Below are positions 58,198-64,000 of a DNA stretch of 64,000 nt, piece after piece. The notes under the pieces are model-generated. The model did not search any database. It had not been told where the DNA came from and was given only the letters and a program-made list of their open reading frames with translations. Where the stretch lies: positions 64,001-128,000 of IMG/VR virus record IMGVR_UViG_3300021399_000005. One strand, 5' to 3'. A program made the position numbers and the translations under genes. Each line of letters begins with the position of its first letter. Positions within the stretch are counted from its first letter, which is position 1. Origin of the DNA: a virus. Lineage: Duplodnaviria; Caudoviricetes.

Positions 58198-58780
58198 CTC
58201 TTAAAAGTAATCAAAAGTTCACATTTTTTGCGCCCTAAGCCCCCCTTGCCTCTATATATAATGAAAGTTTGTGTGATATACTTGAACAAAACTGCCCAAA
58301 ATTTTAAAAAAACTACTAAAAAAGTAGCCCCTATATATAAAAATATAGGGTTTTTTTTATATTATATCACATTTTTTATAAAAAGTCAACAGAAAATTTA
58401 AAAAAATTCCTAGTTTTCTCTCAAAAACTAGGCAAAAACCTATCTTTTATACGGGATACAGAACCGGATACCTGGCCAATAGAAAGGGGTACCTTTAAAA
58501 ATAGGGGGATCCATTTCAAAAAACGGATTCAAAATCCTGGAACTAAAAGGGAAAATGAAACGAAAAACTGAAATCAAAAATGTGAGACGAAAAAGTGGCC
58601 AAAGCGTGGCTGGGCGAACACGTTAGTACCTGGGTTGTAACGAGAAGAGCGACTTAAGAAAAGGATGAATGCGCCAGGGCCGTTTTGGAGATCGTCAGAT
58701 CGGGGTCCGCGCATTTTTACTTTCTTCTCTTGTTCGGAACCGTAGGTTCCTCACAAAAAAACGCCCTTATGGGCGTTTTT

Positions 58781-59134
58781 CTAGTCTTCTTCCTCTACTT
58801 CGTCTTCTGCTAACTGGTAGAAAGTTACACGCTTCTCAACAATCTTTTCTACATTACCAGCTTCTACTGCTACCTTCATAGCAGGAGCTAATTTCTGAGT
58901 AGTTACATCTAACATGTCAGCTAAATCCTTTGCACGGTACTTAACTCCAGCTTCCATAACTTCTACAGCACGGTCAGCTAACTCTAACTTTGCAGTGTTT
59001 ACACGAGGCTTGCGCGCAGTTGCTCGCTTCTCTTGTGCGGCCTTTAATGCGATTAATTTTTCCTTAACTTCCTCATCCTGTACGGCCTCAATTGCTAATG
59101 CTAATGCAGCTACATAAGTCATCTTCTGTTCCAT
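58781..59134 (-). CDS. winged-helix protein, paralog 1
   Basis: KMTY..RKPRVN..YRAKDLADMLDVTTQKLAPAM..VEK..KRVTFY. Confidence 0.75.
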   Translation of the reverse strand: MEQKMTYVAALALAIEAVQDEEVKEKLIALKAAQEKRATARKPRVNTAKLELADRAVEVMEAGVKYRAKDLADMLDVTTQKLAPAMKVAVEAGNVEKIVEKRVTFYQLAEDEVEEED

Positions 59135-59422
59135 AAGTTTCACCTGTTTTTTAACCTTTCTTTTTTCCTTATTTCTATATATATTATACATTATTTTTTT
59201 GCTATTGTCCAATAAAAAAAATCTATTACAAAATCATTCCATCTAAAAATTTTTTAGAACCTTTTGGGAAACCAAGGGAAGGCCAAAGTGCGCAGTTGCG
59301 AAATTAAAAAAGGGCCAAAGCGTGCCACTTTTGAAAACGCCGCGCCCCGGAGCTGGCCCCCGGCCGCGCGGCGCCAAACGCTCTTTTAGTTACTTAAATA
59401 TAAAGGTATAAAAAAAAGAAGC

Positions 59423-59776
59423 TTATTCAGCTTCTTGCGCAGTGTAGAATGCTACACGTTTTACGACTTCTTTTACAACACGGCCGTCACCCAACAACAG
59501 GCCCATAGCCGGAGTCAATTTTTGAGTAGATACGCCCAGCATTTTAGCCAAATCAGCCACTCGGTAAGCAACACCTTTTTCCATGATGTCATAAGCTTTT
59601 TCAGCCAACTCGATTTTAGCAGTGTTTACACGTGGTTTACGTTTCTGCGCTTTGCGGTCAAGCTGGTCTTTAAGTGCCTGAAGTTTCATACCTACTTCAG
59701 TATCCATGCCAACATGGCCAATAGCAACGTCAAGAGCATCAGCATAAGTCATTTTGATTTCAGTCATACATTTCAC
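59423..59776 (-). CDS. winged-helix protein, paralog 2
   Basis: KMTY..RKPRVN..YRVADLAKMLGVSTQKLTPAM. Confidence 0.75.
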   Translation of the reverse strand: MKCMTEIKMTYADALDVAIGHVGMDTEVGMKLQALKDQLDRKAQKRKPRVNTAKIELAEKAYDIMEKGVAYRVADLAKMLGVSTQKLTPAMGLLLGDGRVVKEVVKRVAFYTAQEAE

Positions 59777-60104
59777 CTTTTACCTTTCTTTAGGATTTCC
59801 TATCCTTTTTACACTTATATTATATAATAATTTTTTGAATTTGTCTAATACTTAAAAGCTATAGCAAATTATTTCCTATATCAAAAAAGTATATCAAATT
59901 TGGAATTAGTTTAGGGCGCTAAAGGACTTTTGGGAAACTGCGCGAAGGCCTAAAGCGGGACGTAACCGGTAGCAAAAATCTGAAAATCATATGAAAATCA
60001 GATTCGCTCCGCCTTCCAGCTCTCCGAGCGCAGGCGGAGCGCCAAATCATATGAAAATCCTATTTTCGCAAACATAATAAAAAAAGGGATATATTATCCC
60101 TTTC

Positions 60105-60464
60105 CTATGCTTTTGGCTTGCGATGCGCAGTTAATTTCAGAGTGTACTCTTTACCATTGTAACCAAAGTTAATTTCGGTTTCAGTTTTTACATTTGCAAT
60201 TTCGGCAATTTGCTCAAGTGCCGGAAGAATCTGTTCAATAATGAACTTTTTATCCTCATCAACCTTGCGCTCTTTAACAGCTTTTTTACGTTCCTTTCCT
60301 TTTGGTTTCAGCTGTTGCTTAAGTACTGCTTTTGTACCCTCATCAAGAGTAGTGTTCTTTTCCTTGTCAATTTCAAGGTCATCTAAGTACATTTGTTCAG
60401 CTTCTTCACGGGTCAAGCCCAGCGCCATGTTAGCTTTAATCATATCTTCTTTTGTGCGTGCCAT
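60105..60464 (-). CDS. hypothetical protein
   Basis: Own promoter, RBS and terminator. Confidence 0.7.
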   Translation of the reverse strand: MARTKEDMIKANMALGLTREEAEQMYLDDLEIDKEKNTTLDEGTKAVLKQQLKPKGKERKKAVKERKVDEDKKFIIEQILPALEQIAEIANVKTETEINFGYNGKEYTLKLTAHRKPKA

Positions 60465-60762
60465 GTTATCACCTTTCCTTTTCTATAAATATTGTATCAG
60501 ATTTTTATGGGTCTGTCAATATCTTTTTTTATTTTCCTTTCCCTTTATCTATAAATATTATATCATATTTTAAAAATTTTGTCAACAACAAATTTATTTT
60601 TTTGATTTTTGGGAAAATCAGCTAGAAAAGTGACATGCATAATGTCAATATGAAAATCATATGAACATCACAAACAACAAACTCGTCGCCCTTGCAGCAA
60701 AGCGCCCGCAAGGGCGACGCCAAAGGCTATGGGAAAAGGATAGGATTTTCCTATCCCTATTC

Positions 60763-61700: not shown

Positions 61701-61761
61701 CTTTTCACCTTTCTTTTTACATTATTATTCTATCATAAGGGGTTGATTTTGTCAACCCCTT

Positions 61762-62451
61762 TTAATCAATTCTATTCTTTTGTACTTTCATCCAACAGGA
61801 ATATTTTAAACCATAATCGCAAGAGCCTTTGAAGTGTTTTTTAATATACTTAAAGATTTCTGATTCATCCAAAGCGTCATTTAATGCCGTATGACATTCA
61901 ATATAAGCAACATCATTTGTAATGTATCTATACATTGTTTCAGCACTTGTGGAAATATTTCCCTTTTCTGAAATGCAACCATTTTCATATGCCCATTGAA
62001 CAAATTGAGCAGTCTGTCCAACAGTATTACAAGCTAAGTTCCATAAGCAGAGTAATTTTTTCTTTTCAATTTTTGAAATTGTCTTTTGAGAATGACAGAA
62101 GAATTCTTCACTATATTTAATAGCTTTAATATCAAATTGAAGATTGTATGCGCCAATACAGGATACATTATGTTTGCGCACATCAAACCATAACTCTTTT
62201 AAGATTTCGCTAAAGTTTAAAACCATTTCTTGTTTACGAGCTTTTGCATAGTCTTTTTTGTAGCCTTGGTAGAAGTCGGAAGTGTCTAAAATCCACTTCC
62301 CGTTGACATGTAATTCTTTTACTAAGAATCGTTTTTTACAAACGATTTCACCTTTTGATAAAACTACATATCCTAAATCGTGTACAAGTGGGGAACCAAA
62401 CGTTCCGATTGTTTCAGTGTCTAAAATCATAATATTTCTTGGTGTTCTCAT
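61762..62451 (-). CDS. DEDDh 3'-5' exonuclease
   Basis: ILDTET, AYNLQFD, HTALNDA. Confidence 0.85.
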   Translation of the reverse strand: MRTPRNIMILDTETIGTFGSPLVHDLGYVVLSKGEIVCKKRFLVKELHVNGKWILDTSDFYQGYKKDYAKARKQEMVLNFSEILKELWFDVRKHNVSCIGAYNLQFDIKAIKYSEEFFCHSQKTISKIEKKKLLCLWNLACNTVGQTAQFVQWAYENGCISEKGNISTSAETMYRYITNDVAYIECHTALNDALDESEIFKYIKKHFKGSCDYGLKYSCWMKVQKNRID

Positions 62452-62513
62452 TTTTCTTATCTCCTTTAACTGTCTATATTGTATCATGGAAGGGTTGAGA
62501 TGTCAACCCTTTT

Positions 62514-62747
62514 TTAATTAAAAATTATATCTTTTTCATTGTATTCGTAAACATGATAGAAATAAATAAGGCTTGAATCGCTTGTGATTTTGCTCACAAC
62601 CTCATAGTCCGGATTCTCAACTCCATCTTGTTTAAGCAAGTCAAGATTTTTTTCAAAAGCGATATGAAATGCGCCATTATAAATATAACATAAATCATCT
62701 GTTAATTCTACATCACCGTAGACGTCTTCAATATACACACCAAACAT
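62514..62747 (-). CDS. hypothetical protein
   Basis: GGAGG RBS and TTGACA promoter. Confidence 0.6.
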   Translation of the reverse strand: MFGVYIEDVYGDVELTDDLCYIYNGAFHIAFEKNLDLLKQDGVENPDYEVVSKITSDSSLIYFYHVYEYNEKDIIFN

Positions 62748-63021
62748 TTTGTGTACCTCCTTTATCTGATTCTATAATAAGGGATAATTAAAAAAATGTC
62801 AACAAAAAATTTCGATAAGCACAAAACTTTTATTTGTCAAGCATTATTTTTGGGAAGCACAAAAATTCTTTTTGTCAAGGTCCAATTTGGACTAAAAATG
62901 CTGAAAGGTTAGTGTTGACAAACTCGCCGCCTTGACGTGAAAAAGCGTGCGTCAAGGCGGCGCCCAACGCAAGCTAAAGATTTCTGATTTTCATATGAAG
63001 AGGGGAAGTTCCCCTCTCCGA

Positions 63022-63354
63022 TTAGACTAAGCGATACAGAGCTACACGCTTTTCGATATGCTTTTCAATCTGTCCACCCTCAACGGCAACAGTCATAGCT
63101 GGAGTTAATTTCTGTGTAGACACGTCAAGCATTTTAGCAAGTTCAGCAACACGGTAGTCAGTGTTAGGTTCCATAACCTCAACTACCTTTTCGGCAAGGT
63201 CAAGTTTTGCCTGATTTACACGAGGTTTACGGTTAGCTGATTTGTGCGCTAACTGTTCTTTAAGAGCAGTTAATTTTTCCTTAACCTCTGCGTTGTCAAC
63301 TGCGTTGATTGCGTTTTCTAAAGCTACTGCGTAAGTCATTTTTTCGTTTGTCAT
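63022..63354 (-). CDS. winged-helix protein, paralog 4
   Basis: KMTY..RKPRVN..YRVAELAKMLDVSTQKLTPAM. Confidence 0.75.
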   Translation of the reverse strand: MTNEKMTYAVALENAINAVDNAEVKEKLTALKEQLAHKSANRKPRVNQAKLDLAEKVVEVMEPNTDYRVAELAKMLDVSTQKLTPAMTVAVEGGQIEKHIEKRVALYRLV

Positions 63355-64000
63355 AATTTTATCACCTTTTACCTTTCCTTTTGTGTCTTTATTATAACAC
63401 TTTATTTTTCTTTTGTAAAGAGGAAATTTATATTTTTTTCAGTGGGATTTTTCTTTATTTCCCTTTCCTTTTTACAATATAATTATATACTATTTTTTTA
63501 AAACTGTCTAATACTTAAAAAGTATAGGAAAGCTTTTCATATATCAAAAAAGTATAGCAAAGGGTTTTAGGATTTTCATATGAATAAAAAAAATCAAGTT
63601 AGTCTTGACAAACTATTGGTGGATGTGGTACAATAAAATTTCGGCGTCCAGTCGTATAATGCGCTCGACTGGACGCCGACAAATAAAAAAAATAGTCCGA
63701 AATTGGACTAAATTAAGATTTTTTCGTTTTTCTTGAGGTAATTTCTAAAGCACGTTCAAATCCTTTCCTATATGCTTCTTTAATAGAATCGTCAACAGTG
63801 CAATCTTTATTGAAATAGTTTCTGATTACAATGGCTTTTTTCTTTTCATATAATTTATTTTTCATTTTATTTTCCTCCTCTTTCTGATTCTATTATACCA
63901 CTTTTTATTAAGCTGTCAAGCAAATTTTCTGAAAATTTACTTTCAAAATTTTCAAATTCTCCGGCATTAAAAGCTATAATTTCCATCACTGTTCTAATAC

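Follow-up and report, generated by a model that had tools for sequence, protein, structure and literature searches.

T4-type myoviruses carry promoter-early stem-loop (PeSL) cassettes (Arbiol et al. 2010, PMC2839356; Comeau et al. 2014, PMC4122927), and the strain differences between close relatives in these phages are indels and replacements bounded by the cassettes (PMC2839356). Here we analyze an array of small genes, all on the - strand, whose larger spacers carry long GC-rich hairpins and short repeated boxes, located at positions 58700-63900 of a stretch of DNA from an uncultured rumen/gut phage. The window, that is, the whole stretch of 64,000 nucleotides that was analyzed, comprises bases 64,001-128,000 of an IMG/VR record which is complete, with 166,804 bp and a 127-bp overlap of its ends. 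Coordinates follow the window numbering unless marked; window-equivalent positions above 64,000 lie beyond the window end in the same genome, and L002:16590-16870 is genome 136,590-136,870.

The initial annotation of this array held that no described system matched it. The closest described system, however, is the promoter/stem-loop cassette of the T4-type phages (PMC2839356), and the exchange behaviour of the array is PeSL-like (PMC2839356; PMC4122927), unlike that of integron attC sites or of repetitive extragenic palindromic (REP) sequences. Both systems repeat a composite unit made of a host-type early promoter and a G/C-rich stem-loop, and both are concentrated in hyperplastic early regions where they flank ORFan genes. 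The position of the stem-loop with respect to the -35 and -10 hexamers varies in both; here it lies over the -35 in short spacers and after the -10 or the -35 in large ones. Indels and replacements bounded by cassettes also have their counterpart, in swaps between conserved spacers that are precise to the open reading frame (ORF). The array differs from PeSL in that the hairpin of its large spacers belongs to a promoter that points opposite to the genes and is followed by no gene, in that a separate U-tract terminator precedes the hairpin, and in that the hairpins are perfect palindromes of 35-52 nt with large loops, every one of a different sequence; moreover, the host is of a low-GC Firmicute type and the phage is unrelated to T4. 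The reading that we favour, and to which we give an even chance of being right, is that the large spacers are composite transcription-unit boundary modules, which would mark and insulate the units, and that shuffling takes place by homologous recombination.

A whole-genome search, together with two more hairpins found beside AGTCTTGACAA boxes, gave 13 long GC hairpins, all of them between genome positions 123,338 and 136,922; outside the array the search found only three short hairpins of terminator type. The six hairpins that had been predicted, each with its own sequence, are all in place in 58700-63900, and seven others lie further on, making the array larger than initially reported. The six are:

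59338-59373: GC hairpin 1, without a backward promoter
60005-60041: GC hairpin 2, with AAATCATATGAAAATC boxes on both sides
60684-60719: GC hairpin 3, the sole one of the six flagged as terminator-like, on the gene strand
61417-61465: GC hairpin 4, beginning 5 nt past the TTGACA of a GTTAG box, with covariation across relatives
62925-62962: GC hairpin 5, beginning 5 nt past the TTGACA of a GTTAG box, with a compensatory C-G to T-A change in strain L109
63641-63679: GC hairpin 6, at the predicted +1 of a backward promoter, replaced wholesale in strain L106

Their stems are perfect over 8-14 bp, with folding energies of -22 to -30 kcal/mol (-22 to -34 kcal/mol for all 13, with loops of 10-30 nt), and the longest word common to any two of the 13 hairpins is 9 nt. 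On the + strand the stems begin and end with CG and are flanked by AAAYT on one side and CCAAA on the other, within AT-rich DNA. The hairpins had been said not to be terminators. This stands insofar as separate terminators exist and the + strand has no U-tract, the CCAAA tail and the long loops departing from the short loop and immediate U-tract of an intrinsic terminator; on the gene strand, however, RRUUUKU-like tails follow the hairpins, and about five of the 13 have at least five T in eight. A tRNA-minihelix reading of the CCA that follows the stem was discarded, CCA being found after 8 of the 13 hairpins here and after none in the distant relative L122, and a selfish GC-palindrome of the REP or yeast-mitochondrial GC-cluster type was likewise discarded, as every copy is different. 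The loop sequence AAAGGAGGAGGAAAA (+ strand; CCUCCUCCUUU when the gene strand is read) was seen at L002:9251-9288, at about L002:12625-12680 and at 12686-12720 of L116 (reverse complement), and is thus conserved between this phage and a distant relative of 48% GC.

The GTTAGT(C/G) imperfect palindrome had been noticed next to the hairpins and is indeed there, but the box is better described as the -35 region of a + strand promoter: the GTTAGTCTTGACAAAC box holds the TTGACA of a promoter of sigma-A type, on the strand that carries none of the genes. The elements on this strand are:

59262-59270 (+): TTTTGGGAA element, with further copies at 59928, 60607, 61340 and 62848
59985-60001 (+): TCATATGA box, with further copies at 60047, 60657, 61332, 62991 and 63576; 8 of the 12 genomic sites of its 8-mer are in the array
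61400-61415 (+): GTTAGTCTTGACAAAC box, an operator-like imperfect palindrome with a -35 hexamer and no -10
62908-62923 (+): GTTAGTGTTGACAAAC box
63598-63634 (+): complete backward (antisense) sigma-A-type promoter, formed by the GTTAGTCTTGACAAAC box, an 18-nt spacer and TGgTACAAT

Complete backward promoters (TTGACA, 17-18 nt, TGnTAYAAT) end 6-9 nt before the hairpins at 63641, 64256, 67520 and 70958. The first of them (63605-63634, TTGACA-18-TACAAT with TG, 11 of 12 matches) is conserved in the relatives L105, L106, L108 and L111. In six further units the hairpin starts 5 nt past TTGACA and no consistent -10 follows; a good -10 was found only at hairpin 65654, inside its loop, and the idea that cruciform extrusion regenerates the -10 in these units failed on spacing when the flanks were read by eye. 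The remaining three units (59338, 60005 and 60684) are without a GTTAGTCTTGACAAAC-type box and have TCATATGA or GGCCAAAGYG boxes alongside instead. The four box families said to be shared by the larger spacers were recovered, and are nearly private to a 16-kb stretch and consistent in strand: the array contains all six genomic copies of the TTTTCATATGA box, all 11 of the GTTAG..CTAAC type, all 10 of the AGTCTTGACAA box (every one on the + strand) and 9 of the 15 of the TTTTGGGA box. An IMG/VR scan for the box pattern returned a near-identical contig and chance single matches, and nothing else.

The genes themselves, as the initial annotation had proposed, each have a promoter-like site and a U-tract terminator of their own. 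We counted 34 promoter-like sites against 18.3 expected, 13 of those on the gene strand scoring 11-12 of 12, and 14 terminator-like sites against 4.1 expected. In each large spacer, the TTTTGGGAA element precedes the first forward promoter by 22-51 nt. The terminators and short spacers are:

58755-58780 (-): intrinsic terminator of winged-helix paralog 1, a hairpin and then a T-run, found by reading the sequence
59416-59436 (-): intrinsic terminator of paralog 2
60080-60106 (-): intrinsic terminator of gene 60105-60464, flagged on both strands
61484-61504 (-): intrinsic terminator of gene 61500-61691, of TAGTCC..GGACTA type
61727-61762 (-): short composite spacer of PeSL-type layout, in which the terminator stem-loop GGGGTTG/CAACCCC holds the -35 TTGACA of the next forward promoter (61755-61727)
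62478-62512 (-): short composite spacer, in which the terminator stem-loop overlaps the -35 TTGACA of the next forward promoter (62506-62478)
63693-63710 (-): intrinsic terminator of gene 63713-63865

In order to follow these elements in other phages, we used close strains (L100-L111, 84-99% DNA identity) and distant phages that share the winged-helix family only (L114-L126, 35-55% identity). The hairpins are retained in the close strains, where loops vary freely and changes in the stems are always compensated (T-A to A-T in L103, C-G to T-A in L109 and T-A to C-G in L106). In the alignable group of the 61417-type hairpin, 100% of cells are paired, and 7 of 14 pairs have changed on both sides and none on one side only, which 0 of 500 shuffles reach, in agreement with the prediction that these hairpins are constant in structure and variable in sequence. 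A survey of 66 hairpins (788 stem pairs) found no G.U interruption of a stem, whichever strand was read, which fits a need to fold on both strands and is unusual for an RNA active from a single strand only. The strand of action could not be read from G.U wobble: the folding energies show no bias between strands, and the mismatches at the inner boundary of the stems are G.U-compatible in 15 cases for the - strand against 6, a weak tilt. The distant phages (L122, L124, L119 and L118 are examples) have arrays of the promoter-hairpin unit, in every case oriented antisense to the genes. In L122 there are seven, with a consensus promoter 7-8 nt before a GC stem of 11-15 bp and all genes on the other strand; its GC stem is followed by an A-tract and the hairpin of the terminator of the convergent gene. 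Since the unit is kept in distant phages and its stems are compensated, it is old, widespread and under selection. An ordinary terminator hairpin, at 64311-64331, also compensates, being GGTAGCCC/GGGCTACC here and GGTAGTCC/GGACTACC in L106 (L104 was also compared).

The cassette-like nature of the array, with a content that varies among related strains, was confirmed. Synteny is not fixed, and about 15 insertions, deletions or replacements separate this phage from six relatives. Most of the approximately 26 homology boundaries lie within 16 nt of a start or stop codon, and whole ORFs have been exchanged while terminator, hairpin, promoters and 5' untranslated region (UTR) stay (61502/61697, 63870/64126, 67602/67813 and 69019/69221). 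The right-hand boundary of the swapped blocks falls in the repeated 5'UTR/promoter, where there is no hairpin, and around several exchange events 140-390 nt are free of hairpins. The spacers share 73-85% identity among themselves over stretches of about 60-140 nt, which is enough for homologous exchange. A different type of event was seen in L106, where unrelated palindromes stand in place of three hairpins (63641, 64256 and 65654) while the flanks remain 86-94% identical up to the first stem base.

If the large spacers are boundary modules, the region would be a hyperplastic block of immediate-early genes in a large phage of virulent type, which relies on the sigma-A RNA polymerase of its host, and each small gene or gene pair would form its own transcription unit. 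Along the genes, the proposed order of a module is an intrinsic terminator, the GC palindrome, a backward promoter or a -35/operator box, and one or two forward promoters. The palindrome, which is predicted to fold equally well in RNA from either strand, could serve as a two-way stop or cap, backing up the terminator as a fail-safe hairpin when polymerase reads through it; for units whose backward promoter is intact, we infer transcription from this promoter, and the palindrome would then be the 5'-terminal stem-loop of a short antisense transcript opposing read-through. Since the spacers are repeats, homologous recombination in them would let relatives that co-infect a cell trade ORFs and, at times, hairpins. 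What the sequences show is the anatomy of the modules, its conservation, the covariation of the stems and where the breakpoints lie. Support for such modules comes from the forward promoters and U-tract terminators of each unit, the fixed spacing between backward promoter and hairpin, the recurrence of the unit in distant phages, the selection for paired stems, the PeSL-like short spacers and the ORF-precise swaps. The Bacillus phage SPO1 has a host-takeover module of many small early genes, each with a strong sigma-A promoter and a terminator, and a sigma factor of its own for later classes. Our phage shares with it this arrangement of small early genes as well as a phage-encoded sigma factor, but searches with DNA and protein against GenBank phages found no sequence relationship between the two, and we know of no description of backward promoter-palindrome units in SPO1.

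Several observations weigh against insulation. A T-rich tail on the gene strand follows only the approximately five of 13 hairpins mentioned above, the relatives with full backward promoters have AAA between the hairpin and the U's, which is poor for intrinsic termination, and the loops are far larger than those of normal terminators. Nine of the 13 units have no complete backward promoter and their hairpins still evolve compensatorily, and therefore promoter and hairpin may not work together. Further, the wholesale swaps of L106 hint at diversifying selection, not expected of a simple insulator, and strictly perfect stems would equally fit a role at the DNA level, as cruciform or single-stranded DNA.

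The hairpins could instead be the 5' ends of small or antisense RNAs that are transcribed independently and have their own function, for example silencing or stabilising the convergent early mRNA, or serving as decoys for a host nuclease or sensor, with the GC stem-loop shielding the 5' end from 5' exonucleases. This we consider unlikely. It agrees with the fixed distance of 6-9 nt that separates the hairpin from a perfect or near-perfect sigma-A promoter, in four units here and in almost every unit of L122 and L124, with the + strand of the array, where we found no credible ORF under code 11 or code 4, with loops that are purine-rich and asymmetric between strands, and with strains that swap hairpins while both flanks stay, as for a possible arms-race target. 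However, most units are without a + strand U-tract terminator, which leaves no defined 3' end, stems are maintained in the nine units here that have no usable -10, and no G.U wobble bias points to the + strand. No Rfam family matched the array at the gathering threshold, the matches otherwise being to microRNAs at chance level with E up to 1, and antisense targets within the phage were rejected, given that no hairpin has a 12-mer complement elsewhere in it. Unlikely, too, is a bolder proposal, that backward promoter and palindrome together make up a phage element of an undescribed class, whose dedicated task goes further than insulation: a battery of very stable hairpin RNAs with 5'-triphosphates, or of hairpins of DNA, might saturate or mislead, early in infection, a nuclease or nucleic-acid sensor of the host, or the element might prime DNA synthesis. 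If this were true, the wholesale hairpin swaps between strains would be the record of an arms race. That the palindromes act as DNA, either as protein-bound cruciforms or single-strand hairpins or as priming or origin-like sites where a short promoter-driven RNA would be passed on to a DNA polymerase, seems quite improbable to us, even with stems that are strictly Watson-Crick on both strands, AT-rich flanks and an operator-like palindrome 1-2 nt away in six units. R-GCG-Y is frequent in the loops, a faint likeness to the CS-6 loop motif of ssoA origins, and neighbouring AT-stem hairpins (58000-58200) have TAGCGA in theirs; but the loop motif varies by phage group, being YGGCCCA in L119 and L117, and the CS-6/ssoA-like motif was dropped for lack of conservation across these groups. 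In addition, central spacers of 10-30 nt disfavour cruciform extrusion, and 13 origins in 15 kb are implausible.

We judge it very unlikely that the hairpins are only secondary terminators, ordinary if unusually strong, of the forward genes. They do invariably follow closely on the 3' end of a gene, and both the RRUUUKU-like tails and the slight lean of the inner-boundary mismatches to the - strand go in this direction, but a canonical terminator already stands before nearly every hairpin, the large loops and the AAA after the hairpin in relatives do not suit termination, and the fixed spacing to the backward promoter in distant phages is left unexplained. Least credible is the proposal of the initial annotation that the hairpins are structure-specific recombination sites, attC-like or REP-like, that move cassettes. 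Cassette content does differ among strains, and three breakpoints in L106 are at hairpin edges. Each hairpin also resembles integron attC in lying at a cassette's 3' end and in being specific to that cassette, with variable sequence and conserved structure. However, breakpoints lie mostly at ORF edges, away from the hairpins, and the searches suggested earlier for a tyrosine recombinase or a HUH nuclease found neither: the complete genome has no match to tyrosine recombinases, including an IntI-type integrase (PF00589, with a positive control in 14 of 14 genomes), to serine recombinases or to Y1 HUH nucleases/transposases (PF01797). The attC comparison fails further on the absence of R''/R' cores (RYYYAAC/GTTRRRY), the AAAYT and CCAAA flanks not being inverted cores, on stems that are perfect where attC is defined by extrahelical bases, and on the promoters that every cassette carries. 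As for REP/REPIN sequences and their RAYT transposases, many near-identical copies contrast with copies here that share words of at most 9 nt and give no sign of recent transposition.

Turning to the genes of the array, those in the cassettes are for the most part ORFans, and the features are:

58781-59134 (-): winged-helix paralog 1 (117 aa), from the ORF, alignment and an AlphaFold model whose fold matches ArsR/SmtB, MarR and CodY
59423-59767 (-): winged-helix paralog 2, from the ORF and alignment, with a weak PHROG match to a 'transcriptional regulator' family
60105-60464 (-): ORFan cassette gene (119 aa), without a family match
60763-61104 (-): winged-helix paralog 3, from the ORF, alignment and PHROG search
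61500-61691 (-): ORFan cassette gene (63 aa), replaced ORF for ORF in L103 and L106 with breakpoints at 61502 and 61697
61762-62451 (-): DnaQ-like exonuclease gene, matching phrog_20187 at 9.6e-36 and phrog_192 'DNA polymerase exonuclease subunit' at 2e-5
62514-62747 (-): ORFan cassette gene (77 aa), missing or replaced in L106
63022-63354 (-): winged-helix paralog 4, from the ORF and alignment
63713-63865 (-): ORFan cassette gene (50 aa), replaced in L105 and L106
window-equivalent 64331-64669: winged-helix paralog 5, just past the window end

The four diverged paralogs recognised initially are thus joined by a fifth. Paralogs 2-4 are 55-59% identical to paralog 1, with 40 invariant columns in the alignment of the four. 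The AlphaFold model of paralog 1 (mean pLDDT 82) has two N-terminal helices and then a winged helix-turn-helix, H-H-H-(H-H-beta hairpin), with helices at 47-59, 68-74 and 79-92 and strands at 95-100 and 103-108 forming the helix-turn-helix and the beta-hairpin wing. The top Foldseek matches of this model are SmtB, CadC, MarR and CodY (probability 0.99-1.00, E about 2e-3). None of the paralogs of this phage reaches the Pfam cut-off; among distant members of the family, which has about 150 members in metagenomes, MarR_2 was detected in 15 of 24 and TrmB in 11 of 24. The paralogs share with the ArsR/SmtB, MarR and TrmB repressors the fold of their C-terminal 60 residues, and 16-bp operator-type palindromes are abundant near them, while the N-terminal two-helix extension and the RKPRVN linker are specific to the family. 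The paralogs are probably regulators that bind the palindromic boxes, a pairing that we infer. Across 13 lineages with the winged-helix family, the GTTAG-N6-CTAAC box was found in this phage, in L121 (17 copies) and in L119 (one copy), and the family could not be assigned as its binder, the box being present in few lineages. L121 (IMGVR_UViG_3300031867_000025) has its 17 perfect palindromes in 16 kb, often after GCCCGGGC and in some cases abutting GC hairpins; they are absent from the other ten phages carrying the family.

The window has a GC content of about 29-41% in 2-kb steps, and 23 tRNAs and a transfer-messenger RNA are encoded. Early genes run leftward on the - strand from about 138.1 kb of the genome, and the array at 58700-63900 therefore lies within the first ~15 kb of the early block; late genes are long and run on the + strand from about 138.3 kb rightward across the ends of the record. 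A PF00940 profile for a T7-type RNA polymerase had no match in the genome, the control for this profile matching nowhere either, and N4-type hairpin promoters (5-7 bp stem, 3-nt loop, read by a giant T7-like virion RNA polymerase) have a geometry that the hairpins here do not share. In GenBank phage records neither the DNA of the window nor the winged-helix protein family had a match.

Some further observations concern the spacers and their surroundings. Most large spacers contain tandem pairs of near-consensus forward promoters with one small gene each (59819-59897, 60491-60585, 61248-61314 and 63391-63510). GGCCAAAGYG occurs on the + strand at 58597, 59281 and 59313 and has no other copy in the 167-kb genome. 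Upstream of paralog 5 there is a 1-kb ORF-free leader with several forward promoters (L002:8700-9650, window-equivalent 64700-65650), inside which strain length differences fall. At genome 136,590-136,870, before the last GC hairpin, five or six GTTAG-N6-CTAAC and three TAGACC-N-GGTCTA palindromes are packed within 300 bp, in what looks like a master operator region near the point where early and late genes diverge. At L002:12640-12935 (+) a perfect ribosome-binding site, AGGAGGAGG, is followed after a 5-nt gap by the ATG of a hydrophobic ORF of about 95 aa that starts MASPALEIFYILF and overlaps a forward promoter and gene, on a strand that is otherwise non-coding. Finally, the ORF-free stretch 57750-58780 contains, at 58000-58200, five consecutive hairpins with long AT-rich stems (up to 18 bp) and loops with GAGCGTAGCGAA or GAGCGAAGCGAA, among which there are two GNA-type mini-hairpins, GGGGCGAAGCCCC and GAGAACGAAGTTCTC; this row might serve as an origin or a packaging site, or form a structured RNA.

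The phages that host these arrays are abundant, uncultured phages of the rumen and gut. If the module is an insulator, it would provide synthetic biology in Firmicutes with a compact, portable and bidirectional boundary part, and if its RNAs act in trans, they would be a new kind of phage counter-measure. The repeated spacers explain how small early genes, probably involved in host takeover or anti-defence, can be exchanged without any recombinase. Promoters of consensus strength directed against every gene and combined with a 5' palindrome, conserved at 35-55% marker identity, imply a real and undescribed rule of phage gene organisation.

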